The position numbers and the translations under genes are program-made. Below are positions 3,720 to 62,591 of a stretch of DNA of 64,000 nt, in pieces; within the stretch, counting starts at the first letter, position 1; each line of letters starts with the position of its first letter. Below the pieces are notes generated by a model. That model was not told the DNA's origin. It saw only the letters and a program-made list of their open reading frames with translations, and searched no databases. Source of the DNA: Naegleria gruberi (Eukaryota); the NCBI GenBank assembly GCA_000004985.1, contig GG738863.1. One strand, given 5' to 3'.

Positions 3720-5999
3720 CTATTCCTCTTCTGAATTTCTTAACAGTAGTAAACGATCTTGGATTTCACGTTCCTTCTTGTCAATACTTCTCTCGAATAA
3801 TTGTGGACAAACTTCAACCAACCAATCTGATTCAATAGTTGTTACATCTCTCATGAATACTTTGGTTGTAAATAAAAGTTCTGTAAATATTACAAACTCT
3901 GGCGGATATTTAAAAAGGACGCTATTAGGATGGATGTAATAAATATCATTGCCTCGTACGGATTTATAGGAACCATCTGATTGTCTTTGTGCTGCATTGG
4001 AAAAGTAACCAGATATTAAACATTTTCTAATAGTATCAATAGGTGGGTCAATATTGCCGTAGCCCACATTTGAATCCATAATTGATTTGATAGGAATGGA
4101 GAATCGTTTGAGTAGTTTTTCAAATTGATGGATAAATTGTTCAACTCTTTGCATGGATTTGTAAGTAATACAATTGTCATAGCACCATTTGCTAGATTTG
4201 TTGTTTTTGAGATAGGACATGTAAATGTTAAGGTATGTCAAATGGTCACCTTCCATAACAGAGAATTTCCTTTTTACATACTCAACCCTATCTTGGAGTT
4301 GTCTGGAGGTTACAAAAACATTTCTCACACTGGTCATGGCACAAATAATGAGCATCTCTTGAGAGCAATTCATATTACCAGAGTGTAGCAGAATTTTAGA
4401 AACGAATGGGTCAGTCGGGAATTCAGCCATTTGTAAACCCAGAGGATTTGTCAATTGACATGAATCATCAAGAGCACCGAGTGCATAAAGAGTTTCCAAT
4501 GATTGGGCCATATGACTAGATGGTGGAGAAGAAAGAAAATCAAAGAATACCAAATTATCAATTCCTAATGCCTTCATCTGGAGAATGATATCTGAGAGAT
4601 TGGATTTTTGAATTTCTGGAATGGTATTTTCCTTAAGCTTTTCATAATCTTGTTCAGTATAGAGACGAAAGCATTTACCATTCATCACTCGTCCTGCTCT
4701 TCCAGCACGTTGTCGTGCTGATGATTTGCTAATTTCTGTCACTACTAGACAATCCCTGTTGGAACGATAATCATAAATTCTCTCCTTTACAAATCCACAA
4801 TCAACTACAAATCTCAGAGAAGGAATAGTAATCGATGTCTCTGCAATATTAGTTGAAATAATGACCTTTCTCTTATCCTTTACAGTATCAAATATTTTCA
4901 TTTGCTCTTCCAAGGATAATCCTGCGTAGAGAGGTAATACGAGCATGTTATCTTTTTTTGCTTCGAATAGAGAATCTTCAATAAGGGATACCAGCTCTTC
5001 AATTTCTTGTTGGCCTGTCAGAAAGACCAACACATCTCCAGATTCTATTGGTTCACTATTATGAATGTTCAAGACGCATTGTAAGCTGGAACGAACATAA
5101 TCTGAGATTGGTTTCTGAATGTAGTAAATATCGACTGGATAGGTTCTCCCTTCAATACTCATAATGTAACAACTCAGATTCAATTGGGGAACATTGAAAA
5201 ATTTGTAAAAATCCTCAGCATCGAGAGTGGCACTCGAAATTATGAGTCTTAGTTCAGGGCGCTTCTGTAGGACCTTCTTTAAAAGTCCTAACAAGATATC
5301 TGTCTTGGTACTCCTTTCATGGACTTCATCAACTATTATGACAGAATAATCGGTCAATAGAGGGTCCACCAACATTTCTCTCAATAACATTCCATCAGTC
5401 ATGTATTTAATCCTTGTAAATTCTGAATATTTTGCATCGAATTGAACACAATATCCGACCAACCCTCCAAGTTCACCATGTGCATTTTCACTTGTTAATA
5501 TTCCACTCCTAGTTGAAATTCCAAAACTATTACTTGCAGCAGAGGAAGAAGAGGAATTAGGAAATGATTCCCTCTTCTCCTCAAACACTCTCTTAGCAGC
5601 ACTAATTGCTGAAATCCTTCTCGGTTGTGTACAACAAATAGATTGTCCATTAGAGCACCATCCACTCTCATACAAATATTGAGGAATTTGTGTCGTTTTT
5701 CCACTGGCAGTCTCTGCACTCACAATCAACACATTGTAATTTTCCAACAAGTACAACATGGAATTCCTAAATTTATGAATAGGTAATTGTCTTCTCTGTT
5801 CATCCAATGATAACTTCCGATGAGGATTATAAACAAATTCCATAACCTCCTGATTTTCATTCCGATCAATAATTGAATCTCGAAACTCTTCATGTGTAGA
5901 ATTTCGGATGGCTTCTGGCGCTTGTTGTCCAGGTTTCCAAAATCCACCACTTTTACTAGGCACCGACCGAGAGGATGATGCTTCCGCTGGTTTAAGCAT
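3720..5999 (-). CDS. DHX35: DEAH-box ATP-dependent RNA helicase, DHX35-like
   Basis: This is a single 759-aa ORF. It carries motif I (AETASGKTTQIPQYL), motif II (DEVHERS), SAT (SATLD), TNIAETSITI and motif VI (QRAGRAGR), plus the HA2/OB C-terminal region. The N-terminal region (YNPHRKLSLDEQRRQLPIHKFRN) and the full-length collinearity match DHX35. Confidence 0.85.
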   Translation of the reverse strand: MLKPAEASSSRSVPSKSGGFWKPGQQAPEAIRNSTHEEFRDSIIDRNENQEVMEFVYNPHRKLSLDEQRRQLPIHKFRNSMLYLLENYNVLIVSAETASGKTTQIPQYLYESGWCSNGQSICCTQPRRISAISAAKRVFEEKRESFPNSSSSSAASNSFGISTRSGILTSENAHGELGGLVGYCVQFDAKYSEFTRIKYMTDGMLLREMLVDPLLTDYSVIIVDEVHERSTKTDILLGLLKKVLQKRPELRLIISSATLDAEDFYKFFNVPQLNLSCYIMSIEGRTYPVDIYYIQKPISDYVRSSLQCVLNIHNSEPIESGDVLVFLTGQQEIEELVSLIEDSLFEAKKDNMLVLPLYAGLSLEEQMKIFDTVKDKRKVIISTNIAETSITIPSLRFVVDCGFVKERIYDYRSNRDCLVVTEISKSSARQRAGRAGRVMNGKCFRLYTEQDYEKLKENTIPEIQKSNLSDIILQMKALGIDNLVFFDFLSSPPSSHMAQSLETLYALGALDDSCQLTNPLGLQMAEFPTDPFVSKILLHSGNMNCSQEMLIICAMTSVRNVFVTSRQLQDRVEYVKRKFSVMEGDHLTYLNIYMSYLKNNKSSKWCYDNCITYKSMQRVEQFIHQFEKLLKRFSIPIKSIMDSNVGYGNIDPPIDTIRKCLISGYFSNAAQRQSDGSYKSVRGNDIYYIHPNSVLFKYPPEFVIFTELLFTTKVFMRDVTTIESDWLVEVCPQLFERSIDKKEREIQDRLLLLRNSEEE

Positions 6000-6931: not shown

Positions 6932-9900
6932 TTATTCATAAACTTCTGCAAATTCAGTTGCACTTCTACCAAATATTTCAGGGCTATACATTTCCTCAGC
7001 TTTTACACCTGGAATAACAAATGAGCCAATAGATGTAGCTCTGGCAAGGTAGGTAAACTCATGAGTACCTTCCCATAATAATGAACTGAATGCTTCCACT
7101 CTTTCATCTCTAATATTATGATGCTCGTACCAGATTGGATTCCACCAACACCACCAACGTCTTGTTCCTCTATTATTATTGGATCCAGTTCCACTAACAC
7201 TAGCAATAGCTGGGGTTCCTTTCAATTCTGGATTGATTGGTTCGAGACCAGCTGGTAAAAAGTCAACTAGAGCAACATGATATCTACGACTAGTATTTGT
7301 CATTCTCAACTTGATACGAACCAATTCTCCTGCCTTAAATCTCCAACTATTCTTTTCCTTATCAAATGTAACATGAGAAGGATTAGTGACGTGCTCATAA
7401 CTTCTTTGAACTTCGAAACCGTAATCCAAAGCGTCAACAAGTAAATTCTTTGGAGCATAATCCATACCAATTCTATAGTATAATCTTCCTTCCCTTGNAA
7501 TGTTTGTTCTCCACAATAATCTTCTCCAAGCCATGCGTTAACAACAAAATCTGGGGTAACTCCTTCAAAGACATTAAAGTAGGTATTGAGAGCAAGGAGA
7601 ATGAAAACGTTTTCCTGAGTATTACCCCATCTTCCCTTCTTCTTGTGAGCCAACAATCCCTTAACAATTTTTGGAATGAGGTGTGATTTTGGAGAGATAT
7701 TGATGAATGCTTCCAAACAAATACCGTCGGTTCTTCTATCACTGTGCAACATGATATGCTTGGTGGCCATTACATCTCCATAACTGGTGATAAAGTTTGC
7801 TGTTTGAGCAGTTTCATTAGCATTCTTATCCAAGTGTGTCATAATTTCTGAAACTGTGCTTGTTTCTTTCTTACCACTTGCAAGATAAATAGCAGTAGCT
7901 ATCCATGCAAGATATTCCATATTTCCTTGGAGTTTCTTTTCCTTATAGAGAGTTTCAGCTAATGACTTGGCATCAGATTCACCCAACAAGGCCAAAACAT
8001 AGTAAGCATAAGCTTTGATGGATCTCAAAGATTCTGGAGAATAATCAGTACAGTATCTTTCAATAGTTTTGAGGACTGGAATGAGTTTGGACATCATTGG
8101 TGCATTCAATGTGTAACCAGCAATTTTACAACGAGCCATGGCGTGACCAACATGGCAAGTAACGTAAGGAGACACCTCATAATAGCTAGAGTAGGACCAA
8201 TAGCCAAAACCACCATTAGGGAATTGTCTTGAAGCCAATGTAGAGAAATATCCATTGATTTTAGTGTCAATAGCATCTTTGGTTGGTATCTCTGGAACTT
8301 GGAAGGCATACAAAATATCCTTGAGGGCAACAATTGACAATATTCTACTAGAAATTTGTTCACAACATTCAAATGGATAGTTATACAAATAGAGGAAAGT
8401 GTCAGTGAGTGATGACAAGGCAGTAGAAGAAGTTGTAATCTTGAGACCACCAAATTGTGGGAAAACATTTTGAGGAGCCTTTACAGGTTGGAAAACTGAA
8501 GAATCTCCATCCATTTCACCATAAGTTGCAAATGCCTCAGTAGTAGCTGGTGTGAAAACTCTAATCTCCTTTTCTACAGCATCGGCAAAATTAATGCCAG
8601 GTGTAGCAATGGAAACACCAACTTGGAATCTGGCAATACCAACACGATCTGTTGACATTGGGAATCTCAATTCGGCTCTTCCCATAGCAGGTACTTTGAC
8701 CCTCAAACCCTTCTTTGAAGAATCCAAAAGAGCCAAGTTTGTGAAGTTAATAGCAGCATTGACAACAACATCAATTGGGACTTGACTTTGTAAAACACAT
8801 GTAAATTCAGCTCTGTCACCAAAGTTAAGGAATCTTGGAAGGGATGGTCTGATTGCCAATGGAAGTTGAGCCACCATAGATGATTCATGAATTCCAAAAC
8901 ATGAATCTCCTTTGATTGCAACAGCTGTAATTCTATACTTGGTCAAATTGTCAGGAAGTTTGAATGAAACAGTTGCTTTACCATGGACATCAGTTACGCT
9001 CTTTGGACTGAAAACTGCAAGAGGATTAAAGTTAGATCTGACAGAAATTGCTGAATCTTCTGGTTGGTCTTCCTCGCCCTGGGAAGATGCATCTTTACAT
9101 TTACCACCTCTAGCACAGCATTTACGACAGCACTTACAACATTCCCTGTCACAACAGCCAGAACAAGAAGCACTAGCACAACAAAGCAGTTCTGGTTGAT
9201 CTCCTTCGAATACAACTGAATCATAACTCTTTACAAAAAGGTAGCTTCTCAATGAGTATGGATTAAGAACTGGATAATTTCTACGAGTAAATGTATTAAG
9301 AGGATTAGAAATAGAATATCCTGTCAAGGAGAGAACAGCTTCATCAACTGCCACAATGCAGACTTCAGAATTTTGAATTGGTTCACCAGTGATTGGATCC
9401 TTAACAAGTACATCAATGAAACTTTCTGCTCCTGGAGTTAAATATTCCTTCTCAGGTTTGGTCTCAACAGTTAAGGTTCTAGTGATGTTGGAAACAGAAA
9501 TTTCACATTGACCAGAAGCATATGCAGGCTGTTTTGGCAAATTAGTAAGAACGGTACCCACTGCATCAACTCTTGATTGACTTCCTGCAACTTCAACACT
9601 AACATAAATATTAGGAATGCAATTTTTGGTAATGTCAATCTCAATTTCAGTACAACCGTCTTCTGGATCAATAGTTATTGGAATATGTTTGATCACATCG
9701 TCAAGTGATACAAGTGCAACACCTTCACATTTTCCATCAAGGTTAGATTGAATAAGAAGTTTAGCCTTATCACCAACTTGATATTCAGTCTTGTCTTTAA
9801 TGATGAGAAGGGTGTCCTTAGAAATTCTCTTGCCAACCTTTTCATCTCTTGTGGAACCACCTGTAATATACAAGTTAGTTCTTGATGAATTTGTAAGCCC

Positions 9901-12900
9901 AGTTTCAGGATCAACAATTTCGACTTTGAATGAATAACTGCCACCTTTTTCAAATTTAACAGGTACTTCAACTGGTCCGTCTTTAGATGAGGTCAAAATT
10001 TGTTCAAAAACTTGCACGGTTTCATCTACAAACCTGAATCCCTTCTTTACACTAACAGATGTGGTAGCTGTCAATTTCATTTGAATACCAGAGACTAAAT
10101 TACCATCGACATCAGATGTAACAAGGGATGCAGTTACAGGAATATTAGGTTTAACAAATTGTTTGCTAAATTTGATACCACAATAATACTTGCAAGGATG
10201 GACAAGGAATGAAGTACTCGAAGAGATTGTTTGTCTGTTAATATCTTGAACAGTAGATTCTATTGAGATAGTTACTGGTACCTTGTTAGGTCTTGCAGAC
10301 TCTGTAAAAGAAATAGCAATTTGATGTTCTCCGTTACCGTCTGTGGTACCTTCAAATGTGGTACTTCCTAAAACAGAGCCAGTACTACTACCGAATCTTC
10401 TCATTCTATAAAATCCCATGTATGGATCATTACCTTCTCCAAAAGTATAGGCGTGTTGGTTAGGAGGAGTATATGATGCAGACGTTTGCTTGATGGTATA
10501 ATTGCATTTTCCACCACAAATACCTCCACCAGAGTAGTATTCAGCCTTGGTAGTGCATACAGCAGAATTTCCATTCACAATATAATTACCAGCAGGAACG
10601 GAAGATGATGATTTGAATTCTGGAGTTCTGAATTCTTGTACCTTGAAGGAATGTGAGGTTGAGAAAGCAGTGAATGTAATGATATGATCTCCCAAGTTAG
10701 CATTATCAGGAACCTTAAAAGTAAAATCAAAGGTTCCAAGTTTTGAAATTTCAATATCTCCCTCACAATATTTTTGACCTCTGGCATCATGGACTGTATA
10801 GTGTGTTGTTTGTTCAGAAGGAAGAACGACAATAGGTCCAGAGTCTTGCAATTTGAACTTTCTGACGATACCCTTGATGGAAACAGTTTCATTAGGCTTG
10901 TACAATCCTCTATCGTTGTAAATATGAGCAACGGTATCTGTACTAAATTTTGAAGTGTATAGTCCAACATCTGGAATGAAACAAGAATCATTACCATGCT
11001 TGGCAATCAATTTGGAAGTACCTGCATGAACCTTATATTTTCCAATACCAGTCTCAGCGTCAGGAGTAACATGTGCATTTACCTTGATGAATTCCACATC
11101 TTTCTTAATAATACTACCATCGCTCAATGAGTTAATCCAGAAATATAAATGAGATGAATGAGAATCATATGAACAATCAAGGGCGATCTTTGTAGATTGT
11201 ATCCATGCACAGTATGTTGGACGATAGTCCCAATTTCCTTTCCAACTAGTTTTAGTTGGCTCAACAAAAACCATCAAGTGACCCAGATTTTCATTAGGGA
11301 ATTGAAGATATTGTGAGAGGTCTACCTGTGTTTCACATGGTTCATCTTTCTCTCCACTGATTGTCAAGGTAGTGTCTAAAACCATTTTTCCTGGGAATTT
11401 GTAACTATTGTTATAGGCACTATAGTTAAGAGTTTCACCAGAATAGATTTGAGGTTCTACTTGACAAACTTTAAATTGTACAGAGTCCATATTTACAGTA
11501 ACAAAAGAATAGGTTGGTTTGGTGTTCAAGGTTGGATCGAGTACCATTACACCAGTACCAAAAGCTTGTAAACTTTGACGAGCACTTCCAACTTGAAATT
11601 CAACAACTGTATCAGGAAGAGTTTGTCCCCAAACATCTACAATACCCTTAAGGAAAAACTTATAGGTTGTTCTACCCTTTGATTTGCCTCTGATTGTCAA
11701 ATAAGTTCCACTTGGATTCAATTCCATGTTTTCCAATAATGGTGAAACAGTAACCATAGACTCTAAAAGCTTATCAACATCAATAGAATTGGAGAAGATA
11801 ATAGTGAAAGGCTCCATTGGAGTTGAACCACCAGATGAACGATCTTTTCTAAATTCAGGATAAGTGTATACATGAATTACTGAATCTTTCAATGATGGAA
11901 GAGGGCCTTCTGTACCAACAACTCCCTTATTAATTGTAATATCAAAAGAAGCTCCAATAGAAACTGGATTATTTTGGAAATCAAAAGTAAACCACAAATG
12001 TCTAGATTCAGGAGCTGAAGAAAGTTTGGAAAGATAAGAGTTATACATGGATGAATGTTTCTTTTTCAAATTATAATCTTCCATCATTTTCTTAACTTGA
12101 TCTTGAAGGAGTGAATTTGAGGATTTTCCATCGAAAATCAAACTAGCCTTACGACCTGGAGTGGAAATAAATGGTAATACAGCACTTGGGTCAATCTCTT
12201 GATCAAACTCGGCATAAAATACAGGGAATTCATTAACTGGCATTGAGTGGCTATTTGGCAAATACTCTTTAACATAAAGTCTTGGTGTTTCGAATGTAAA
12301 AGAAAAATCTGATTTCAATGTGCCCCCATTTTGTGAGCTAGTTCCTTTCTTGACAGTAACTGTATACTTTGTAGACATGTCAAATCTATAGTTGGCTTCA
12401 TAGACTAATGTTTTGGAACCCAACCACTTGAATTTACCTCCCTTTTTTGGGAGTGGTGAAACAATAACAGGAACTGTCTCACTTTCAACACTATCAATGC
12501 TGGATACAGCAACCATTGGTTGAGAGAAGGTAATTGTAATGGATGGAACAGATCTATCTAATTCTCCTTCTGGTGAATATCTCAAAATGGTCAAATCAGA
12601 ACCTGAAAGCTGGGCTTCTTCTTCCTTCAATTCTTGTGGTTTCTCCAATTTAACTTGAGGTGGAAATTCAACTTGAATAGAGTCAGCTGTCACTGGTGCC
12701 TTTAAAGATTTTTCTCTACATTTACAAATATCATTTCAATCACAAAATCCATCAATTGTAAAACTACTTACCTCATGAAGAAATCTTTTTGATCAGTGTC
12801 ATCACTCTTAATTGCTGGTAATCTATTCAATAATCTGTTAGTTTCCTCCTCTGATAACTCCTCAATGGAGCATAATTTTGCTCCCGATTCTTCTTCTGAT

Positions 12901-13049
12901 GATGATGCTGATAAATTTTCCAACAAAAGGGCTGCTCTACTATCCTCCAAAGTTGGTTCTCTCACCTGCAAATTGATTTGATCATAGGTATTAACTGATG
13001 GTACCAAGCCAGTTGGCAATGTAACTGGGCGTCTTGATAGAAGTCTCAT
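6932..13049 (-). CDS. Thioester-containing protein (alpha-2-macroglobulin/TEP/CD109 family), about 2000 aa; 1 intron plus an apparent frameshift at an ambiguous base
   Basis: Exon 1 (12768..13049) ends ...DFFMR at a GTAAGT donor. A 56-nt intron follows, then an acceptor at about 12711. The roughly 5.7-kb main exon contains MG-domain-like repeats. The thioester region reads YPFECCEQISSRIL, which keeps the CxEQ core. The alpha/alpha-toroid TED region and the C-terminal receptor-binding-type domain lie in ORF 6932..7534. That ORF is in a different frame from 7306..12693, and the frame switch coincides with the N at 7499. Confidence 0.85.
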
Positions 13050-13320
13050 GTTATTTGATGATGATCAGATTAAAGTTTTTTTAAAATAAATTGCTGGTGT
13101 TGTTTTTTCTATTTTTTTTTGATGATAACTTTTCGATTTTTGTGGCCATTTAAATGTTGTAACTGGCAGCTCATGAACTTTATTCCTTGGAACTCCTTTT
13201 GTGTTATCTTGTGTAATATTGAGTTTTTGTAATTAAATATTTTATACAGTGTAACCATTAAGAAAGGTTACCAAGGAAGAGACTACTAGGGCAAAAGGGA
13301 AGGGCAAAGGATGCAGACCT

Positions 13321-15543
13321 TTAAGATTTGGACAGGAAAGTGTTCACCAGTTGACCATTTAATTGTGAACTGGAGAGGTTTGGTTCGAATAATTGTCTTG
13401 TTGAGGGATGGAGCATCTTGAAGGTTTCTTCACTAATATGCAATTGATTCATTCTACCATTTGCCTCAATAGAATTACACAGAGAAACTCCCTCACCAAA
13501 CAAATCAAAACTTTGCTTGAACTTTCCAACAACTGCTGCTGTAATATTGGTAGAGGTGTGAATTCCAATTCGGACACCAATCTTGTTAGGATAGTTCCCT
13601 CCACCCAGAAATGCTCTCTTTTCATTGAATTTCTCAATGGATTTAATCATTTCAAAGCCACACTTAACACATTGCTCTGCATGTTTCGGTTCGTCATAGG
13701 ATGAGCTATGATAAAGACCACCAGCTAGGAAATAGCAATCTCCAATGGTTTTAATCTTTTCCAGCTTGTTGGAGGAGCATAAATCATCAAAGTTTTCGAA
13801 TATATCATGGAGCATCTTGATAACACTTGTTGGATTCATGTCACTAGTCAATTTGGTAAATCCAACAATGTCACAATAGAGCAATGTACAACATACAATA
13901 GAGTCAATAACTTTCAGACCCATTGAAAGTCTTTGTGCAATGTTTTTAGGGAAAATTCGATCCGTTATTCTGGTCAATTGTTCCTCTTTCGTTGCAACCA
14001 TTCCAGTATCTCTAATGAATCCAATAAAGTGAGATTTTTGACTTTTTGGATCAATTACTTCTGAAATTCTGGTTTCTATTGAGAGAATTCGTCCACATTT
14101 CCCTTCTGCTTTGAGGAACCTTACACTGTCAATTACTTTTTTCTGACCAGTTCTCATGTATCTCTCTAAATAGTAATCGTGCTTTCTTCTATCTGAAGAG
14201 TTGCAAAGCATTTTAATGTTTTTACCGAGAACTTCATATTTCTGATAGCCAAAAACATTCACAGCCGAATGATTAAAAACCTGAATGATTCCTTCCTGGG
14301 TAATAGCAATGATTGGAATGACTGAAAGTTCAGTAATTGAATCACAAATAGTCTTGTTTTTCATAAGTTTCTCATCTTCTTCACTTGTTTTACATTGTTG
14401 AATGTAGAGACAGTAATGAATCGTGCCAGTTTTTTTAACGGTGACAACTTTACCGTGACAAGGGAATGATTTCTTGAGTACGTTTGAATAGCATGTGAGT
14501 TTTAAATCTCTTACCAAAAGCTTTCGTCTTCTTCTCGATCGTTCCTCTTTCCTTGCAATTGAATATGGCAATCCATGAGAGGCACAATGAGTTTCTGTTA
14601 TATCCCAAGAATTCAATGAACCAGTAAATCTTTCAATTTCCATCTGAATGTCCATAATTGACTGCTCATCCACATACTTTGAAAGATTTTCGCCTAGAGC
14701 CACAAATGAATGAATTCCAAATAATTTCTCAGATTCTGGATTTAAATACTCGATTTCAAACTTCTCATTGAATATAATGATAGGAAATCCACACAACATC
14801 ATTTGATCTATGGCAGAATTCAACTCCTCAGATTCTTCCTGCATGAGTGGTGCGTCATTTTCAGTATATCCATTCATTACACTTCCATACACTTGCAAAT
14901 CACTCACCAAATCGAATGCATCATGTGTATAATCAATTGCTTGTTCAGACTCTGCTTCTGTCTCACCTTCACAATATTCTGATTCGATTGTTTGTCCAAA
15001 ATTAGCAAGACCGTTCAGTAAATTATTAGAGCTTTGCAATCCTTTGAGAAGCCTGGACGAAAGTCCCTTCTTGAATCCTGCAGCCCTTTTCAGTGTTTGC
15101 ATTCCTTGCTCTCTACTCTGAACAGAGAGAAAACTTGCTCCACTTCTAGCAGAAGATTGGGCACTTTCACAACCCATATCTGTAGAGTTTAAATCAAGAA
15201 AGAGTGAGTTTTTCAATTCACCTGGTTTAAGGCAAATGGAGGCACTTGCAACAGCCATAGTTGAGTATTGTCTTCCGAGTTGAGTAGGTGGTTTTAGGAC
15301 TTTTCTTTTAGGAAAAAGAAGTGGTTCCTCTACTCCATACGTACTTGTAGCATCTCCATTATATTCTGAAGTTTCGCATGAAGATACAGAAATTGCAGAA
15401 TCATCGTCATCATCATTAAGAGAAATTGAAAAGCCAGAAGGTTTCGTAATAATGGTTGGACGACTGTAGGAGAAAGTCTGATACTCCAAGTCACCAGAAA
15501 TTGATTCTTGCTCCTCAACAAGCATTCGTTTCTTCATGATCAA
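13321..15543 (-). CDS. Class III nucleotidyl (adenylyl/guanylyl) cyclase with N-terminal PAS-like domains
   Basis: This is a single 740-aa ORF. The C-terminal cyclase homology domain reads YCDIVGFTKLTS...KIKTIGDCYFLAGGL...VRIGIHTS..AAVVG...FGEGVSLCNSIE. Two PAS-like segments lie upstream, and the N-terminus is acidic and Ser-rich. Confidence 0.8.
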   Translation of the reverse strand: MIMKKRMLVEEQESISGDLEYQTFSYSRPTIITKPSGFSISLNDDDDDSAISVSSCETSEYNGDATSTYGVEEPLLFPKRKVLKPPTQLGRQYSTMAVASASICLKPGELKNSLFLDLNSTDMGCESAQSSARSGASFLSVQSREQGMQTLKRAAGFKKGLSSRLLKGLQSSNNLLNGLANFGQTIESEYCEGETEAESEQAIDYTHDAFDLVSDLQVYGSVMNGYTENDAPLMQEESEELNSAIDQMMLCGFPIIIFNEKFEIEYLNPESEKLFGIHSFVALGENLSKYVDEQSIMDIQMEIERFTGSLNSWDITETHCASHGLPYSIARKEERSRRRRKLLVRDLKLTCYSNVLKKSFPCHGKVVTVKKTGTIHYCLYIQQCKTSEEDEKLMKNKTICDSITELSVIPIIAITQEGIIQVFNHSAVNVFGYQKYEVLGKNIKMLCNSSDRRKHDYYLERYMRTGQKKVIDSVRFLKAEGKCGRILSIETRISEVIDPKSQKSHFIGFIRDTGMVATKEEQLTRITDRIFPKNIAQRLSMGLKVIDSIVCCTLLYCDIVGFTKLTSDMNPTSVIKMLHDIFENFDDLCSSNKLEKIKTIGDCYFLAGGLYHSSSYDEPKHAEQCVKCGFEMIKSIEKFNEKRAFLGGGNYPNKIGVRIGIHTSTNITAAVVGKFKQSFDLFGEGVSLCNSIEANGRMNQLHISEETFKMLHPSTRQLFEPNLSSSQLNGQLVNTFLSKS

Positions 15544-19005: not shown

Positions 19006-20349
19006 TCATACCAAGACCCTCTCTTCACTAATTTGTACAGAATTCATTGAATGAACATCTGTTGCTGTATCAATATTGAGATAAATATTGGTATTAGTGT
19101 CAGAGGCACGAATGGTTCCATTATTTTCAACTCTTGAAATTTCAAATTGTGGAGGTGGTTCATTCATTGAAATTAAATGAAGTTTTTGAGTCTTTCCACC
19201 TTCAATTTCACAAGTTCCTAGAAATCGTATCGTACAAACTTCGTCCAATATTGAAGCTGTTGTTCCATCACAAATTATTCCACTCTCTAAATGATCGATA
19301 GCATAATAACAATGAGCAATAGATGAATTGATTAATTCCCCATACAATCCAAAATGTCTTCTAAAATCCGATCCAACACTAGCTCTGTAACCATAACCAC
19401 TTGCAAATCCAACACCATCGACCTCTAAATTCTCCCTATGAATTAGTTCTTTCAAACAGTGAATTACTAATGAAGGATTGGACTCTGCCATATGTCGTTC
19501 AAAGCTCAATATAAATTTTAGACTCTTTCTATCAAAGAACATATCAAGAACACAACAGTTATATTGCTCTGAAACAACTTGAATAGAATTGACAATATTA
19601 TTCTTTGTTGCNNNNNNNNNNNNNNNNNNNNNNNNNNNNNNNNNNNNNNNNNNNNNNNNNNAATTAATTATATTCATTAATTTAGCTGTAGACAGAGGAG
19701 TGTTTGTTCCGAAAGTTTGAAGAGGAGCCATTAATTGTTTCCTCTTTCTAATAGTTGCATTTACCTGCTTAATAATCCTTTTCTTTTGAATTTTTGAATT
19801 AGATTTGAACCATTTTGCATCCTTTACAGTGTCTTGCAGATCTTTCTTTTTAGCCATTAATTCCATAGTATCACTAGGAGAAGCATTTACTATTAATGAA
19901 TTTAATGGAATACATTTTGCTCCCAAAATTTTCAATTGATTCTTTTTGGAAGTAACCTTGTCAGCTTTACGTTTTAGAACTAGAACACTTCTTTGATTAT
20001 CATCATGAGCAATAATGGAATAGGTTTGATTTTTTCTACTTGCAATCAGTGTTTCGAATGGAACAGTTTCAATATGTTGTAATTCTTCCTTTCTGATTTT
20101 ATAATTTTTAACCTTTTTAATTTTGTCAATGCATAGGGCAACATATTTTCTCTTCAACCATTGAAATACTCTATTACAACAAAATCCTTGATGAATGTGT
20201 TTCTTTAATTCTTTGGATGCAAGATTTCTTCCTGTTTTATTCAATAAAAAAGCTCTGTACCAACGTTTCTTGTTGTGAGTTGTTTGACAGCAAACACAAA
20301 CAGTTCCTTTATCAATTAGTTGTGTTGATCGTGATGACAACTTACACAT
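19006..20349 (-). CDS. Hypothetical protein (ORF interrupted by a 50-N assembly gap)
   Basis: The 447-aa ORF spans the gap at 19612..19661. The N-terminus is Cys-rich (CVCCQTTHNKKRWY...CCNR). I recognise no confident family. Confidence 0.35.
   Translation of the reverse strand: MCKLSSRSTQLIDKGTVCVCCQTTHNKKRWYRAFLLNKTGRNLASKELKKHIHQGFCCNRVFQWLKRKYVALCIDKIKKVKNYKIRKEELQHIETVPFETLIASRKNQTYSIIAHDDNQRSVLVLKRKADKVTSKKNQLKILGAKCIPLNSLIVNASPSDTMELMAKKKDLQDTVKDAKWFKSNSKIQKKRIIKQVNATIRKRKQLMAPLQTFGTNTPLSTAKLMNIINXXXXXXXXXXXXXXXXXATKNNIVNSIQVVSEQYNCCVLDMFFDRKSLKFILSFERHMAESNPSLVIHCLKELIHRENLEVDGVGFASGYGYRASVGSDFRRHFGLYGELINSSIAHCYYAIDHLESGIICDGTTASILDEVCTIRFLGTCEIEGGKTQKLHLISMNEPPPQFEISRVENNGTIRASDTNTNIYLNIDTATDVHSMNSVQISEERVLV
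19612..19661. other. Assembly gap (50 N)
   Basis: A run of exactly 50 N. Confidence 0.99.
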
Positions 20350-20699: not shown

Positions 20700-21161
20700 C
20701 ACGAGTACCTCTAGAAAATGCTGGAAATGAAAAAATTAAAAAATATTTCATCACCAGCTATCGCATCATTTGTTTTAAACTCTCTAATTTATTTAAAATT
20801 AATATTAAATAATTAATTGATTATTAGATAATAGATAATGCCTCCTCGTAAGAAAGTAGAACAACAAACAAGTTCTTTTGCTTGTCTTGAAAATATTTCG
20901 GAACATGAAATTCAACAAATTGCTGTTAAAAAGAGGAGAGGACGACCAAAAACAAAGCCTTCTATTTATGCCGATTTTCCAATTGCTGATTGTATGGGAA
21001 GAAATTGGATTTTGAGTAATGAAAGTGAATTGAGAAGCAAAGTAGATTCATTCCGATTAGTGTGTTATAATATGCTTTGTCAAGACTATGCAAAGAAACC
21101 ATACTTTCCACACTTGTCGGATACCACTGAAATTTTGAGTTGGATTAATAGAAAGCATAGA
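20700..21161 (+). repeat. Near-identical duplicate of 17560..18045 (promoter plus first 108 codons of the EEP deadenylase gene), ending at an assembly gap
   Basis: By eye, more than 95% identical to 17560..18045, with small indels in the upstream AT-rich part. ORF 20838..21160 encodes the same MPPRKKVEQQTSSFACLEN...WINRKHR as 17728..18048, then runs into the N gap. Confidence 0.85.
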
Positions 21162-21211
21162 NNNNNNNNNNNNNNNNNNNNNNNNNNNNNNNNNNNNNNN
21201 NNNNNNNNNNN
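21162..21211. other. Assembly gap (50 N)
   Basis: A run of exactly 50 N. Confidence 0.99.
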
Positions 21212-22630
21212 GTTTTGCTTTCAATACCATACAGTACATTTCTGTTCATGAACAGGTAGAGAGCATTTGCAAAAGTGTAATGGAAGGAAACAGAGTCAAG
21301 TGGATGAGAAGAAATATCCCTCGAAAGTGATGTAACTTGAAATAAATTAGGTGATTCCTCATTAGCCCTCAAAAATTGCCTACACTTTTCAAATATATCA
21401 CCACTAATATAAACATTACCTTGTTTACACTCTTTCAACAATTCCCTAACCCTTAGTAAAACTTCCCCTCCGAAAATTCTCAACCATTGAGATCCAAAAC
21501 CTCCCAAATGATAGGAAGTACACTCACCCACATTAATAACACATTTCACCTCCAATGGTGTGTCATTTGATTTGTAAGTTTTCAAATTGGTCATGGTTTG
21601 AATTTTAATTCCACATTTTACAGCTGCAAGAATTGAATCTGTGAAAGTTCTATCCATCCTAGGTGAGTAGAATTGACAAATAATCAAATCTCCTTGAAAT
21701 TTTTCAATATCTCCACCCATTTCATATATTACAGCAATTAAACTAGTGTACACATAGTAGATATATCTTGATATTTCAGAAACGTTGCAAGTATCCTTTT
21801 CATGATAGAAGGAGTCCACAATTTTTGAAAATCCTTTCATTTCAATAAGTAATATACATGTTTCATAGGAAAATTCACTCACAGGTGAGAGTAACTTCAT
21901 CTTTTCCTCTTCCACTGGTTTGATAGATGAAGTAGAACCATTTTGCTTGTATTTCTTCCACAAATTAATTCCAGGACTTGATGATTTCTTCTTATTATTT
22001 ACCAAAGCTCCTCTTACTAGGTGATGAAGATCTACTATTAGAATCACTATTATTTACAACATTATTATTAGGGATTGGTGATGTTGGACCAGGTGGTAGT
22101 GAAGGAGAATGTGGACGGTCAGATCCCTTATTAGAAGCAGATCCAGTACTAACAGAGAGAAAACTAGAGAATTTACTCTCTGTATCGAGACCTTCATTGG
22201 AATTTGTTTTCTGAAGGTGATGTCCTAGCTTTACCTTATATTGTTTACCCTCGCCTCCATAATATATATATCGGAGGCAATATAGTAAATGTTGAGGAAG
22301 GAAGGAGGTTGACAATTCGAGATTTAATTCCTCCTGTGATTTGGCCTTGGAAGGTGATACAGATTGATAATTATTCAAGCCAATAAAGCTCACTCTAGCA
22401 TTGGGTATTCGGAAGGAGCTTGCCTTCTTCATCTCTGCTGAGGCTCTCACTTGAATATTCTCAAATTCCTCACTGGTGATGGAGGTTCTTGATAGCTTGT
22501 CCCTTCCAAATTGAAACTTGGGCGAGAATGTATTAAGGGAGTGATGGCCACCTTGTGTTGTTGTGATGGATTTGCTGAGAGAAATGTGATCACCGCCCTG
22601 CTTATGAGAAGAGCTACAGATAGCTCCCAT
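21212..22630 (-). CDS. Class III cyclase paralog (N-terminal region plus first cyclase domain), truncated by gap; possible pseudogene or partial copy
   Basis: The protein starts MGAICSS, an N-myristoylation consensus. It is collinear with the N-terminus of the downstream sAC-like gene: SFRIP, FLPQHLLYCL, ETCILLIEMKGFS, IYEMGGDIEKFQGDLIICQFYSP, AAVKCGIKIQ. A frame change between ORFs 21995..22630 and 21145..22047 indicates an intron or frameshift. The 3' part is lost in the gap. Confidence 0.6.
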
Positions 22631-22981: not shown

Positions 22982-25900
22982 CTACTGCTTAATTATCTTA
23001 TATCTTTCATTCAAAGATTGGATTGATTCGTGTTGTTCAATGTAATTTTCCATAAGATAATCCATATCTGAAATAATATCTGGAAGTTTGTCTTCTACAT
23101 ATTTCAGTCCTTTCGATATTAAATAATGATAGCAGTCGTACATGTCCAGAAGAATTCTCAACTTGACACCATGCGCTGATTGAGAAGAAACAAATTGCAG
23201 TGCATCAGAGTAGGATTTTTCAACATTAGGATAGCATTCTTCGAAAGATGCCTCAAGCAATGAGCACTTGATTAGAAGAAATCTGGATTGCAATCTCAGT
23301 ATTTCTCCTAATAAATTTTCTTGATGTGATGCTAGTGCATTCTTGAAGAGTGTCTCTGTATGTTCAAGATACGGAACATCAGTACCAATTTGGATACTAT
23401 CTAGGAATTCCAAATACTTGACCCGAGACTCTAAAATTGCATAATCGAATATTAAGCTTGGAGGTGCATAAATGTGAAGAGAGTTAAAGAGAGATTCCAT
23501 GTGATCAGCTTGTTCCCTTAACCGTTGCTCTTTCTCTACAATATTAATTCCAGACGTTAACTCTCTGCAAAATTGGACATAGGCAAGATAAAACTTGGCG
23601 CTTAATACTTGGGTTGGACTTGCCACAGTTGTTGAAAATATTGAAATGATGCTCATTCCTTGATTAGCTGATCTCTCTAGCTCATCCAATTGACCACTAA
23701 TTAATAAATAGTAGCAAGCAAATGAGTAAAAGAACATGTAAGAAGGGAGGTGAAGTCTGACCCTGCTCTGTTCAGATCCCAAAGTGTAGTATTTTGATGC
23801 ACTCTCATATTTACCAACAGACCACAAAGCCCGCATCGAGTAGGTACAAGATACAAGCAAAGCATCCCTTTTTCTGAACCTATTAATGGACTGTTGATGA
23901 TACTTGTCGGGATCGCTCAAATACTGATTGATAACATCTTCAGAGAAGAGAATTACCTTATTAAAATTACCCCTGGTGTTGTGAGTCATCATGCAAGATA
24001 CAGAACCAAACATTTGCTGTGTAGTATCTCCTATTTCTGTTGATAAATTAATGAGGTTTGAACTCAATACTATTGCTTCATCTGTCTTGTTCAAGTAAAA
24101 AGCCATGAACCATCTCTCAGATTCAATAGAAAAGATCAACTCTTTCTCTGATTCTGGGCAATACAGTTTTGCTTTGGTTAATGCTTCCTCACCAGTCGGC
24201 ATCAAATTTGCGTCAAACAAATTCTCAATAAATATTCCAAATTTGAGTAGACTCTTTGCAAGTAAGATTTTAACACTCAAAAAACTGAGACCCAAAATGG
24301 AAAAAGTTGAAGAAATTCGTGTTATCCCTTCAAATCTCTTTCTGGTAATATCAATCAGGGAGAGAACTGACTCGAAAACGTTCAGCTTTGTAACATCTAA
24401 TAGGTCGGTGTACTTGACTTCTTCATTTCCTTCCTTTTCTCCTTTCCACAATGTTACAATTTTCTCCAATATCGTATTAAATGAAACACAAAGATGCTTG
24501 AAAACAGAAGCTTCCTGCTCTTGGCTCAATAGAGTGATAGCTTTTGGAATTATAACACACGCCAATGCTAAATGAAGCATTTCCTCCTTTTCTACTGATC
24601 CTAGCGAGAGGGTTTCCTCTAAAGCAATCTTATCAAAATAGTGGCCTAAATGAACGGCGATTTCCTTAATATACCACGAGGATCGTTCTCTACTTTTGTG
24701 TCTTCTACATTGTTGCTCAATTGTCTTGATAAAGTGTTTGGCAAGAGACATGTGAAATTCTCTCTTTTGCTCTTTGGGAGTAGTGGAATACACAATCTGT
24801 AGCATCATGGAAGATTTGAATTTGAACGTTCTGTCCTTACTTGATGAACAAGCAAGAAAATGTTTACCCTTTGTCTCCTCAACCACTTCTAAAAACTGAT
24901 GACTGCCAACAAGATTCTTCAAAATATCTGATAATTTTCTGTCCTTTTTCACATTTGATTCCTTTGGGAATATTGCTTCAAGAGTCTCAAAATCGAATTG
25001 GATTCCAATCGAAGATGCAACTTTCAGAACAAGTTGAGAGTCAACATCCAATCTGTCAATCTTTTGTTGAAAGAACGAAGACATTGTGGCAGGCAATTCA
25101 ATCGTATCCATAGTCGTAAATTTAAACTTGAGGCAGCCATCTTCTACATAAGTTCTTCCATTTTCTTGTAAAAAGTGAAGGGCCATTGTTAAAAACTGTT
25201 GATTTCCCTCTGTTTTTTCGACGAAAATGTCTAAAACCTTTGGATCGACTTTTGAAGCATTAAAATAAAGCTTTAAGTATTCTTCACATTCAGACTTGGT
25301 GAACTCTTTAAGGTCGATTACTAAGTCAGCCTTAGCCTTCCACTCATCAAGCTCTTTTCTCTTCTCCGCCATTTGTGGTCCATCTGGAAGCTCGTTACAG
25401 GAAAGCAACAATACACAGTTGGTAATTCCTGGCTCAAGGTCCAAAATTTTTTTCGTAACAATCCTTGAATAGGGGTCAAACTGCATTGTAAAATGGAAAT
25501 CGTCATATAGTAGAAACCAAGGTTGTGCTGAATACCCCATATACATCCAAGAAATAGAAAGCAATCTAGCGAAAAGATCAGCAGCGATGGTAATTCTCTC
25601 CTCCTGATCCAGTTTAACACTATCTTTCGACTCTTTAAACTCGGTACCTACAACTGGGTTCAATAAGTATAAATTGTCACGATCTTTTTCTTCTTTGAAA
25701 GTTTCCAACATTATTTCTTCTCTTTGTTCTCTACTAATATTGTTGTAAAGATTTTCAACATCATTATAATCTAAATCCAATCCGTTCTTCTTATAAAAAC
25801 GTTCAGTAATGCTAATCTTCAGGTTTCCTAGATAGAGATAAAATGGAGTTTCGAACTCAATAGCTGAATTATAAACACAGGCAAGTTTTGATTTCAATTC

Positions 25901-27935
25901 GCTCACTAATCTTCTCAAAAGGTCAGATTTTCCAACACCATTTTCTCCTTTCACAAAAATTATCTTGGTCTTTGTTTTCTTACCCTGTTCTATTTCTTGC
26001 TGTTTTTCATTAACATATCCACAAATACTATCAAATATTTCCTCTCTTCCAATAGGATATTTGAGAGAATTCAAATGCTCAGAGCCACTGTAACTTTTCT
26101 TACCAGATGATTCAGAATGGTCTTCTGTCATAATTTGTGAAGGAGATTTCTTAATGTTATAATACATTTGAGTTGAAGAGATTGATGAGTCTTTGACCTT
26201 CCAAATTTTTATCAAATCTGATTTTCCCTTCACCTTGATTGGCTCTAGTGGTTCTATTGGAATACCCTTCAACATTTGAGCTGTCTCCTCTTCACATAAC
26301 ACAACTCCATCATTTTTTTCTGATTCCTTCATTAAACGGGCAGCCAAATTTACCTTATCACCATAAATAGTAAACTCCTTTCTATATTCTGACCCACTGA
26401 TACAGATTATTAAGGTTAAATAAATATAAACATACACATTTCCAATAAAACACTTTCCACTGGCAATTCCCAATCCAAACTTCATTCCTAGTTGAGATAA
26501 ATTGCCTGACAGTTCAATACCTGCCTTCACTGCTCTAATGGAATCACTGATATGACTAACAGGATAACCAAAAGAAAATACAAGAATAGTACCCTTTTCA
26601 TCCGACAACATGTTTGCAATAAAACCCTCATAAGTTTCCAATACGCCTTGAACGTTTGTTAAATATGTTTGATACACTTGCATTTCATCATCTTTTGTTT
26701 CGTACTTGTTTGTATCAATAATGGACAAGAACCCCACTGTGAGAGGTTTGACTTCATTGATCCATTCACTTTGTCCTGCATCTATCTTGTTTCTAACAGG
26801 TGGGCTAATAAATTTACGAAGTATTGGAATAAAGGTTGAGTTCACTGTTAGAATGGGTAATGATAGTCCAGTAATGGGCTCCCTTTTTGATGCCAGAGCT
26901 ACATACACATCTGCCTCTTTGATTTCTAACTTTCTACAAGTGATATAATTGGAACATTTTTCAAATGCTGGCCTGGTTATCACAACTTGTCCTACCAGAC
27001 TATTACCCAAAGCGGAGGACATTTCGAGAAGAGCTTGGCCAGAAGTGATTCGAAGCCAGTAATCATTCACTCCCAAATGGTGCGTCGTTACATATCCCAA
27101 AGACACACCACAATGTATCTGAAGTGATATGTTATCATTCACCTTGAAAGATTTCAAATATTCAGTCTGCTGAATTCGCAAGGCACATTGAACAGCCGCA
27201 ATTACACACTCAGCCAAAGTTCTATCCTTACGTGGGTAATGGAATTGACAAATAATAGCCTATAGATTTCATTCAATAAAAAAGTTCTTAAGCAACTTAC
27301 ATCTCCTGCAAATCGTTCGATATCTCCTCCAAACTTTGCATGTTAATACTTTGCGCAATTATCCTACTTACATCATAAATAAAGGCAATTAATGTCGTAA
27401 AATATTGATTAATATATTTAGTAAGAAGCTCAGCTCCATTAGGTTCTTTTGAAAGGCTCTCTGTTAAATTAGTAAATCCAGAAATGTCAATCATTAAAAT
27501 ACAGGTTTCATATGTTATATTACTAAGTGGAGACATTGTTGTTGACATTTCTTCCTCCAATGCCTTTGATTTCCTATCATTTACATTACTATTATTATTG
27601 CTCTTGTAATAGAGAGACTTGAGATTATACAACAAATGTTGAGGTAAATAAGAACAAATTATTTCCGCATTAACCTCCTCCGTTGTTTTTTTTCCATTTC
27701 CAAAAGGTATTGTTTTAAATCCCATCAAATTCACTCGGGGAGGAGGAAGTTTGAAAGAGTGTGCCTTACGAACCTCCACCACTTTCGTTTCTGACTCCGA
27801 GGAAGCATAAGAATCTTTTGATACTCTCCTTTCCGAATATCTAATTGATTTATGTTGATTAAAATCTTTTGGTGATTCTTGTTGATTAGGACTAACAACA
27901 TTCTCACTGCTGTTCAAGCTGCAAGCAGATCCCAT
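22982..27935 (-). CDS. Soluble-adenylyl-cyclase-like protein: two class III cyclase domains, STAND P-loop NTPase, long alpha-helical (TPR-like) C-terminal region; about 1600 aa
   Basis: Exon 1 (27360..27935) starts MGSACS, a myristoylation consensus, and encodes the cyclase C1 domain (ETCILMIDISGFTNL). A 33-nt micro-exon (FGGDIERFAGD) sits between introns of about 38 and 41 nt. The 4.2-kb main exon 22982..27217 continues C1 (AIICQFHYPRKDR...AAVQCALRIQ). It contains a second cyclase domain (IASGKCFIGNV...EFTIYGDKVNLAARLM), a Walker A motif (FVKGENGVGKSDLLRRL), and a very long helical repeat region. Confidence 0.8.
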
Positions 27936-58550: not shown

Positions 58551-58632
58551 TTGCACGACTCCAATAAACAACTTTCCCGCCAAAAAATACTACAATCTCA
58601 AACTCTAACTTTGAAAAAAATATCTCGACTAA

Positions 58633-61600: not shown

Positions 61601-62591
61601 AGTAGCAAGAGCAGGGATGTATATTCGATCTACTCTCACATATCGACTTGTACCAAGATTGGCTTTTGAGAAGTGTAATATCTGTGCCAGCTTACAACAC
61701 AAGGTTGATAGCTTGGAATTTCAAATAGGGTTGAGTGCAAAAGTTTTAACTTTTGACAAGTATTGGAAATTCTATGGTAAAACAACAAGACCCTATATCA
61801 AAACAATCTTTGAAAAATGTATACCTCTATTTGGTTCACCTACTGTTTCCATTAAGAGCAAGGATACCACCTTTGATTTGAAGTCCAATGAGGAAACTGG
61901 AAGTAACTCTCAATCACTTTCAAATGAAGAATACTCAACTCAACAAGTTGATGTGAAAACCATCAACACAGAGGATGAAACCAATACCAAATCAAAAGAA
62001 TCAATCTCTTCATACAAACCCCTATTTGGGTCAAATCCAATGAAACTTCCAGAAATGAAGTTACCAACAGAGAGTAAGGAAAGTCTCAAACCTCCCCCAA
62101 CAGAACAGCCAGAATTGGAATGGAAATTAGAATTTCTATCTCAACAAGTGCCTCATAAAATCATACAAAGATTTGGATTGGAAAACTTGAGAAGACTTCC
62201 CTCAAATTATTTCCAATTGACTGAAGAAGAAAGAGAAAATATTCCCTATGAAGTTTACTACCTCCCAAAGAGTGACTTTTCCAATTTCATATCTAAATTC
62301 AGTCCCACAAGCATGTTAAGGAACTCGGCAATATCACCTCTCTCGTTTGAAAGATTATGGAGAAGAGAAGTATTGGAAGGGAGATTCCCAATTCAAGTGT
62401 TGAAACAAATTCCCTTAAAAGATTTGAGAAGTCTCCCAGAACCAATCATTCGTTTAAGAAAAAGGATTTTGCAAGAAATTCCTCTCCAGCTCTTCAAAGA
62501 AGGATATCAACAAATTAAAAGTTGGATATGCTCAAAGTACTACCACTTATGTAATGAGCTTGACACCTTGATAGTGATGAGAAGTGAATAA
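58633..62591 (+). CDS. Large secreted protein (about 1320 aa), unknown function; weak resemblance to lipoprotein N-terminal (vitellogenin-N) beta-barrel
   Basis: The first ATG lies within the long ORF at about 58633 (MSWKYYGVVFLMLIAFLFLIGVLG, signal/anchor). The remainder is hydrophilic with no further TM helix. The N-terminal roughly 200 aa alternate in a beta-strand-like pattern ending KKGILRLL. The middle region is helical. Confidence 0.4.

Follow-up and report, generated by a model that had tools for sequence, protein, structure and literature searches.

Alpha-2-macroglobulins (A2Ms), thioester-containing proteins (TEPs) and complement factors that have been characterised are all made for the extracytoplasmic space. 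The closest described relatives of the protein considered here are ECAM (YfhM) of Escherichia coli and SaA2M of Salmonella, periplasmic proteins of about 1,650 residues that carry a lipobox and are encoded in linkage with pbpC; type I bacterial A2M is defined by this linkage to pbpC (PBP1c). The metazoan clade is recognised by a GCGEQ thioester motif, a thioester domain (TED) of the PF07678 family, a receptor-binding domain, a signal peptide and, in CD109, a glycosylphosphatidylinositol (GPI) anchor. This study concerns a gene on the minus strand (13049..6932) of a 64,000-nt stretch of Naegleria gruberi DNA (GenBank assembly GCA_000004985.1, contig GG738863.1; hereafter the window, numbered from its first letter), the product of which is an A2M of about 2,020 residues. 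The original prediction, made from the letters of the window, had described an intracellular TEP with an unusual thioester motif and a cysteine cluster in its bait region.

The locus is best read as a Naegleria nuclear gene for a thioester A2M of bacterial type that would have been acquired horizontally, lost its leader, come to carry a Naegleria Cys-rich bait and taken on the role of a cytosol-facing protease trap, and to this reading as a whole a probability of roughly 0.7 is given. Its parts differ in strength. That this is a real eukaryotic gene for a bacterial-type thioester A2M is practically certain; the sequence makes it likely that the protein is not classically secreted; and analogy with characterised homologues favors, on balance, a protease-trapping function. 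The family assignment itself is known, database entries being labeled "hypothetical" or "alpha-2-macroglobulin domain-containing." As far as our searches and knowledge go, the combination of a leaderless eukaryotic A2M, an intact thioester apparatus, a cysteine-string bait and bacterial ancestry is new and undescribed for any A2M.

Family, bacterial ancestry and the missing leader

Five Pfam domains score above their gathering thresholds, all on the minus strand and in the order Big_5 (bacterial Ig-like; residues 139–236, window 12286..12579, E = 1.2e-6), MG2 (689–781, 10651..10929, 7e-13), A2M_BRD (1064–1223, 9325..9804, 1.5e-17), A2M, the macroglobulin (MG) domain after the bait (1327–1401, 8791..9015, 2.6e-13), and bMG10, the C-terminal MG domain of bacterial A2M (1859–2006, 6977..7420, 7e-31 over the full profile). 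At E ≤ 0.01, the Pfam scan returned only these five families, and neither the TED model PF07678 nor any A2M receptor-domain model; PF07678 is recorded for more distant matches of the protein search. A NCBIfam scan of the protein gave no family. The best PDB sequence matches are E. coli YfhM/ECAM and Salmonella A2M (E about 6e-14, at low identity and over parts of the protein only). In an AlphaFold2 (AF2) model of residues 1040–1420, the mean predicted local distance difference test score (pLDDT) is 72.6, with 80–93 in the folded parts and A2M_BRD forming a well-folded β domain. The best structural matches of this model are 4u4j, 5a42, and 4u48, ahead of eukaryotic A2M, C3, C5, CD109, and TEP1r; Foldseek E-values for C3, C5, A2M, A2ML1, CD109, and TEP1r lie between 1e-7 and 1e-10. 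The Naegleria protein is an A2M-superfamily thioester protein of the bacterial lineage, not of the insect-TEP/CD109 lineage. The superfamily originally proposed is supported by Pfam, PDB, and fold comparisons, while its framing around insect TEP1 and CD109 gives way to the presence of Big_5 and bMG10 and to the E. coli and Salmonella matches.

The resemblance to ECAM and SaA2M (PDB entries 4ziq, 5a42, 4rtd, and 4u48) extends to the MG array, the bait-region domain (BRD) with its disordered bait, a CxEQ TED, and a bMG10/CTMG domain with RDDR-like and ExMY motifs. However, those proteins are named as lipoproteins in their PDB entries, whereas the Naegleria protein has neither leader nor lipobox. 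It is also longer (about 2,020 residues or more), with an additional N-terminal region that includes Big_5, and differs in having CCEQ in place of CLEQ, a Cys-string bait, and an intron. Type I traits are absent: no lipoprotein signal is present in the protein, and its neighbors in the window are eukaryotic genes without pbpC linkage. A2Ms of acidobacteria and myxobacteria (P0012, P0016, P0024, and P0066; homologues are cited by such numbers) share the N-terminal pre-domain, Big_5, a C[S/A/N/T]EQ motif, and the bMG10 motifs, but possess Sec signal peptides, about 5–6 Cys in total with none in the bait, and no introns. Metazoan TEP, CD109, A2M, and C3 have MG domains, a bait or anaphylatoxin-site loop, and a CxEQ thioester in common with the Naegleria protein. 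Unlike metazoan TEP, CD109, and A2M, the latter ends in bMG10, carries ECCEQ instead of GCGEQ, lacks a signal peptide or GPI signal, and groups with bacterial proteins.

The eukaryotic relatives comprise N. fowleri FDP41_002492, FDP41_013569, and FDP41_011249, N. lovaniensis C9374_010557 and C9374_003975, N. gruberi P0002 and P0003, and Willaertia magna entries with the prefix ABK040_. Identity to the window protein is 74% for the N. fowleri orthologue, 63% and 61% for two N. gruberi proteins, 53–56% for N. fowleri paralogue B and N. lovaniensis, and 46–49% for W. magna. Bacterial proteins of about 2,000–2,130 residues are collinear over the full length at 35–37% identity; their sources, as named, are Acidobacteriota, Pyrinomonadaceae, Chloracidobacterium, and Labilithrix, the acidobacterial sequences being the nearest non-eukaryotic ones (about 37%). 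A neighbor-joining tree on 1,803 well-aligned columns shows a monophyletic heterolobosean clade of these proteins with three Naegleria paralogue groups: A (the window protein, P0001, P0002, and P0003), B (P0004/P0122 and P0005), and C (P0006 and P0007). The paralogue C pair is separated by a tree distance of 0.143, versus 0.256 between the window protein and P0001, which places the source of the window farther from N. fowleri than N. lovaniensis is. The N. fowleri orthologue FDP41_002492 has the same start, intron position, CCEQ motif, and Cys-rich bait as the window protein; among the Naegleria and Willaertia members more widely, bait composition varies by paralogue.

Transfer from a bacterium to a eukaryote followed by duplication is the simplest and, on these sequences, the most likely history. 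The A2M lineage would have entered the ancestor of Heterolobosea by horizontal transfer from bacteria; the Sec signal peptide would then have been lost, the three Naegleria paralogue groups would have arisen by duplication, and the Cys-rich bait would have been gained in Naegleria. Contamination of the assembly was considered as a source of the gene and is ruled out by the intron, the eukaryotic neighbors, and the Naegleria orthologues.

A transcript of the amoebozoan Sappinia pedata (P0057) is placed next to Heterolobosea on a long branch. This homologue (P0057/P0121, EukProt EP01101) lacks a leader too, but its thioester motif is gone (RFESTEGR) and its bait has five Cys; it hints that leaderless A2Ms of bacterial type are wider, if patchy, among amoebae. 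At two acidobacterial loci (L004–L007; P0016 and P0024), a gene for an A2M of about 2,100 residues lies divergent beside a PspA/IM30 (envelope-stress) gene, with a SIS+CBS gene 0.7–2.7 kb downstream. Since no pbpC was found within 6 kb of these two A2M genes, and no mag-operon context at the two loci, the acidobacterial A2Ms look like a third, uncharacterised bacterial A2M lineage.

The difference from the bacterial relatives is clearest at the N-terminus. About 135 N-terminal residues (12589..13049, minus strand, a span including the intron) are homologous to the bacterial mature N-terminus, and the bacterial signal peptide has no counterpart. A leader was scored as a 10-residue Kyte–Doolittle window of at least 2.0 within the first 45 residues. 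This value is reached by 101 of the 109 bacterial relatives (an example of their signal peptides is MRKLTSWLLFVAVYLNFIAPMAVSTNAQ) and by none of 12 eukaryotic sequences; the best such window in the Naegleria protein scores 1.02, and P0122 is by eye also free of a signal-like segment. Eukaryotic homology starts exactly at the bacterial mature N-terminus, the alignment pairing L.FRLSEG...PLS..E...LLKRLP.IK..DDQ.DF..R..LPAP with LQVREPT...LSEEETNRLLNRLPAIKSDDTDQKDFFMREKSLKAP, and the place of the signal peptide is taken in eukaryotes by a short, polar, poorly conserved sequence. Throughout the protein no transmembrane-like 19-residue window was found (maximum 1.53), nor any GPI-like or other hydrophobic C-terminal tail. 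The absence of a secretory signal, as first noted, is borne out by the low hydropathy and by the point at which homology begins.

A leader supplied by a hidden upstream exon was considered and rejected. Between the ATG and the upstream PAS-cyclase gene, which ends at 13321, the intergenic space measures just 271 nt, and a TGA stands in frame six codons before the ATG. Apart from one 16-mer and A-rich tracts, the upstream region shows no conservation with that of N. fowleri, and a start reading MRL is common to the window gene and the N. fowleri orthologue. Because the bacterial relatives carry a leader, the eukaryotic proteins do not, and a hidden exon is very unlikely, loss of the export signal is, judging from these alignments, a conserved and derived trait of the eukaryotic clade.

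Thioester motif and bait loop

The putative thioester site YPFECCEQ (residues 1539–1546; motif C1543-C-E-Q1546 at 8356..8367, minus strand) aligns with YPYGCLEQ of ECAM, in which the thioester is formed by Cys1187 and Gln1190 (PMC4498604). The reactive residues of the Naegleria protein are predicted to be Cys1543 and Gln1546, as these align with the ECAM pair, and the second Cys occupies the variable position x of CxEQ. Among the 109 bacterial relatives, x is Ser in 69, Ala in 12, Asn in 8, Thr in 4, Met in 2, and Arg and Leu in 1 each; in Heterolobosea it is Cys, Ser, or Thr. The C, E, and Q are invariant in all 11 heterolobosean sequences and present in 97/109 bacterial ones, and the Tyr-Pro-aromatic context (YP[FY]) is conserved. 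To call FECCEQ a variant of GCGEQ, as had been done, is to draw the wrong comparison; the motif of the bacterial lineage is CxEQ with a free x, and both reactive residues are intact. By alignment, CCEQ is a canonical CxEQ with a Ser-to-Cys change at the non-reactive position, and a thioester is predicted.

Two further elements of the apparatus, likewise conserved, are found in bMG10, both on the minus strand: RDER (residues 1962–1965, 7111..7100) and EEMY (2000–2003, 6997..6986). They correspond to RDDR and ExMY, which form hydrogen bonds with the TED in native SaA2M and with the cleaved bait in ECAM (PMC4498604).

The second Cys of CCEQ fits a trend that runs through the clade. At about 17 positions, the heterolobosean proteins share a Cys where the bacterial relatives have Ala, Val, Ile, Leu, Ser, or Thr, for example residues 934 and 938 (HPCKYYCG), 671, 813, 1399, and 1827, and the total has gone up from a bacterial median of 6 Cys to 19–41 per heterolobosean protein. 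The replacements follow a pattern suggestive of buried free thiols, not of paired disulfides.

The bait loop (residues 1260–1311, 9061..9216, minus strand) is the only low-confidence stretch of the AF2 model, predicted to be disordered (pLDDT 29–49) between two confident β domains, and is hypervariable in length and sequence among homologues. Within it lies the cysteine string LLCCASASCSGCCDRECCKCCRKCCARGGKCKD (residues 1269–1301, 9091..9189, minus strand), with 12 Cys in 33 residues, five of them as CC doublets, and a GGKCK ending. Cys makes up 1.36% of the rest of the protein, and the binomial tail for the string is about 1e-14 per sequence window. The string falls between the Pfam A2M_BRD and A2M domains, within a query interval (1236–1335) that matches ECAM residues 919–978 approximately, and the disordered bait of ECAM is Arg923–Leu942 (PMC4498604). 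A Cys cluster at the protease-bait position is upheld by these domain boundaries, by the ECAM interval, and by pLDDT values below 50.

In the alignment, bait Cys number 12 in the window protein and in P0001, 17 in P0002, 10 in P0004, 12 in P0006, and 13 in P0007; P0003 has none, P0005 one, the Willaertia proteins 1–4, and the Sappinia sequence 5. The count is zero in 108 of 109 bacterial relatives. Cys-rich baits thus occur in all three Naegleria paralogue groups, with composition kept and sequence not. A sequencing artefact was considered as the source of the string and rejected on the recurrence of Cys-rich baits in five homologues from independent assemblies; no correction of the read would be expected to remove a cluster that is found again in independent genomes. 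Taken together, the sequences indicate that the cysteine string is real, Naegleria-specific, and dispensable in some paralogues, and it represents a natural experiment in the re-engineering of the A2M trigger loop.

The chemistry of the string may be of two kinds. On one account it is a multiply S-acylated (palmitoylated) membrane anchor, by which the trap would be tethered through its bait to the cytosolic face of vesicles or phagosomes; the leaderless protein could even be routed to unconventional secretion. Twelve Cys in 33 residues, mostly as CC doublets, and flanks with Leu-Leu and Lys/Arg would suit such an anchor, a protein without a leader would expose the string to DHHC enzymes, and paralogues conserve composition instead of sequence. 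The closest known likeness is cysteine-string protein (CSP, DNAJC5), defined by 12–15 palmitoylated Cys, in about 25 residues, that are needed for membrane targeting (PMC4447612), and palmitoylated DNAJC5 drives unconventional secretion (PMC9876576). The Naegleria string, with 12 Cys in 29–33 residues and runs of CC, meets the CSP-like count of 12–15 clustered Cys, but the match is compositional only: the two proteins are not homologous, there is no DnaJ domain or DnaJ context, and the string sits inside a loop of a β-rich trap protein. Moreover, the loop has to be accessible to a protease and mobile on activation, which makes it a mechanically awkward site for an anchor, and several strings (P0006 and P0007) lie in acidic flanks, not hydrophobic or basic ones. 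S-acylation is accordingly regarded as conceivable, though unlikely.

On the other account the string is a metallothionein-like metal–thiolate (Zn/Cu) module, or an Fe–S or redox module, that would hold the bait in a compact state; activation would then be gated by loss of metal or by oxidation, instead of or besides proteolysis. The CC, CxC, and CxxC spacings at about 36% Cys and the lack of aromatic residues in the window string are consistent with this, as are the reducing compartment implied by a leaderless protein, where such clusters bind metal, and a Cys count that stays at 10–17 while the sequence varies. Against it, none of six Cys-rich bait segments matched any Pfam family, metallothioneins included, even at E ≤ 10, no conserved His or other ligand pattern is seen, and AF2 predicts no structure (though AF2 cannot model metals). 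This account, too, is judged a doubtful one.

Cellular location and possible mode of action

By homology, the Naegleria protein would be a monomeric snap-trap like ECAM and SaA2M. An attacking protease would cut the disordered bait loop; cleavage would free the BRD, and the contact between MG10 and the TED would be displaced; the buried Cys1543–Gln1546 thioester would thereby be exposed and would acylate a nucleophile on the protease, capturing it covalently. This sequence of events follows the mechanism of ECAM and SaA2M (PMC4498604). The protein would be made, and would most probably act, on the cytosolic side, because it has no leader and no transmembrane segment. Plausible targets would be proteases of intracellular bacteria or viruses and escaped lysosomal proteases. 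The lost leader, the gain of Cys of buried type, and the CC-rich string together appear to point to a reducing, cytosol-side environment; CC-rich strings in the cytosol are acylated or metal-bound rather than disulfide-bonded. It may be speculated that the string, S-acylated or loaded with metal or redox cofactor, tethers the trap to a membrane or gates access to the bait.

By analogy, Dictyostelium CPRas2, a COG2373 (bacterial A2M-like) protein that has acquired an internal Ras-like (cpRAS) GTPase domain (PMC2430557), offers a cytosolic precedent for A2M modules of bacterial type. Both amoebal proteins contain a bacterial-type A2M-like region, and the GTPase domain of CPRas2 implies a cytosolic setting. 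However, CPRas2 is much larger, carries the GTPase insertion, and differs in architecture.

Alternatively, the protein could reach the outside of the cell or a lumen, by a non-classical or so far unrecognised export pathway or by lysis, with the string forming a disulfide knot in an otherwise conventional bait. The characterised A2M and TEP proteins all act outside the cytoplasm (PMC4498604), and the rise to 19–41 Cys over the bacterial median could be read as disulfide formation. Yet signal peptides, present in the bacterial relatives, are missing from every homologue of the five amoeba species; the conserved Cys stand in place of buried aliphatic residues and show no evident pairing; disulfide knots do not typically contain runs of vicinal CC; and there is no transmembrane segment or GPI-like hydrophobic tail. 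An exported protein with a knotted bait is considered improbable.

About as improbable, at this stage, is a more far-reaching version of the cytosol-facing trap, in which the S-acylated or metal-loaded string replaces the bait and holds the leaderless trap at a membrane or in a latent state. Cleavage, de-acylation, or oxidation would then fire the thioester onto pathogen proteins, in the manner of an intracellular complement-like system.

Several points weigh against a horizontally acquired, cytosol-facing protease trap. The cytosolic location and the trapping activity are deduced from sequence and homology. Leaderless proteins can still leave the cell by unconventional export, and we know of no precedent for a thioester protein in the glutathione-rich cytosol. 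The leader was called absent on hydropathy and alignment, and the direction and number of transfers are read from the neighbor-joining tree and the taxon distribution only. The string is not essential to the family, because P0003, P0005, and Willaertia are without a Cys-rich bait. The frame of the window copy is broken at a single N (7498), so that this copy could formally be a pseudogene. Finally, literature searches on Naegleria macroglobulin, the locus tags, and Naegleria horizontal transfer or Acidobacteria found no published analysis of the Naegleria family.

A cytosolic location, should it prove right, would be unexpected to specialists, although for the present it is an argument from sequence. 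A leaderless clade would challenge the rule that A2M, TEP, and complement proteins are made for export, because N. fowleri has three copies. The clade spans free-living and pathogenic amoebae, its thioester apparatus is intact by sequence, and it would provide a tractable protist model of "intracellular complement"-type defense. It would also be a clean example of transfer from bacterium to eukaryote followed by relocalisation, with the signal peptide lost, an intron gained, and Cys content raised from about 6 to about 40. For N. fowleri, the capture of proteases might have a bearing on intracellular symbionts or pathogens, or on the control of the amoeba's own abundant cysteine proteases. Were the protein exported unconventionally, it would be of interest for Naegleria secretion biology; were an intracellular thioester system to exist, it would be the first cytosolic thioester-protein defense and the first non-proteolytic bait in the A2M superfamily.

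Gene model, frame break and neighborhood

The gene (6932..13049, minus strand) has two exons and is the orthologue, within paralogue group A, of N. fowleri FDP41_002492. Exon 1 (12772..13049, 278 nt, with its ATG at 13049) encodes the leaderless N-terminus, from MRLLSRRPVTLPTGLVP... to ...DQKDFFM(R). It is followed by a 56-nt GT..AG intron of phase 2 (12716..12771) and by exon 2 (6932..12715), which ends in a TAA stop at 6934..6932. The splice is validated by the join ...DQKDFFMR/EKSLKAP..., a stretch that is unbroken in all homologues including bacterial ones. The N. fowleri orthologue (locus L003) has its intron at the identical position and phase, with a length of 130 nt. The 56-nt intron of the original prediction is thus confirmed; its 282-nt first exon is the exon-1 open reading frame (ORF) run on to a stop inside the intron, and its 5.7-kb second exon is interrupted at 7498. 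This conserved intron is the only one in FDP41_002492, whereas the paralogue C gene FDP41_011249 of N. fowleri (L001) has none (6,297 nt for 2,098 residues) and Willaertia P0008 lacks an intron there, which dates the gain of the intron to after the duplication.

The single N at 7498 marks both a frameshift and a junction. By BLASTN comparison with the N. fowleri orthologue, the junction lies between two GGAAG microhomologies, and about 97 nt of that orthologue (L003 11653–11749) have no counterpart in the window. The lost 30 or so residues (FKGRSKDEN...IPMS...ISKxG) belong to an MG domain and are present in every bacterial and eukaryotic homologue. One seeming exception is W. magna P0008 (ABK040_003915, L008), the deposited protein of which lacks about 26 conserved residues by artefact: the genomic DNA (gene nt 5550–5680, approximately) does hold the segment, but an A-run within it carries a 1-nt frameshift, possibly a sequencing error, that annotators bridged by a 79-nt "intron." The P0008 "short form" was accordingly rejected as a sign that the gene can do without the segment lost at the N. 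Since the missing residues are present in every homologue, the N is probably an assembly join or collapse (overlapping contig ends) and not biology.

Decay of the window copy into a pseudogene, its odd features being without current function, would account for the broken frame and for the loss of conserved MG-domain residues. It is nevertheless very unlikely: the break falls exactly on the N, a position of assembler-flagged uncertainty, the reading frame is otherwise open over some 2,000 codons, with 74% identity to the N. fowleri orthologue along the full length, the splice sites are intact, and a similar apparent defect in the Willaertia gene is no more than the bridged A-run frameshift. Least credible is a mitochondrial or other organellar presequence in the basic N-terminus MRLLSRRPVTLPTGLVPSV: although three Arg and no acidic residue occur in the first 22 positions and the N. 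fowleri orthologue starts with MRLPHRSKRP, the segment is by eye proline-rich and not amphipathic-helical, paralogues start with acidic or polar sequence (MMDEIDYEEEEPYY..., MFDPMHEDEEE..., MSDLNSLQQQ...), and import of a 225-kDa, 13-domain β-protein is unlikely. The basic targeting peptide once suggested for this gene is not conserved either: paralogue N-termini include MMDEIDYEEEEPYYHDDDYY and MFDPMHEDEEEY, and some are strongly acidic.

The neighbors in the window (a PAS-adenylate/guanylate cyclase, an AlkB-like oxygenase, a DEAH helicase, an NBR1-like protein, and a PI3K) are eukaryotic genes. The N. fowleri orthologue is flanked by LINE-like reverse transcriptase/endonuclease ORFs, and no synteny with the window was seen in its immediate surroundings. 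The PAS-domain cyclase lies directly upstream (13321–15543, minus strand). A second large ORF (22982–27217, minus strand) has a weak cyclase-domain match and a listed TTG start, and so probably has more 5′ exons. Three long ORFs at 30001–34494 (plus), 58551–62591 (plus), and 35401–37479 (minus), of 1,497, 1,346, and 692 residues, have no Pfam match at E ≤ 1e-4 and are uncharacterised Naegleria proteins. Two 50-N scaffold gaps (19612–19661 and 21162–21211) occur in the window, which therefore comes from a draft scaffold; ORFs 19006–20349 and 21145–22047 near them may be truncated.

About 135 nt 5′ of the ATG lies the 16-mer AAAGGAGTTCCAAGGA (13184..13199, minus strand), with a counterpart at approximately 5853–5868 of L003. 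A-rich tracts aside, it is the sole conserved upstream block common to the window gene and the N. fowleri orthologue, and may be a promoter or 5′ untranslated region element. In both species, the ATG of a short upstream ORF is found within about 10 nt after the 16-mer.

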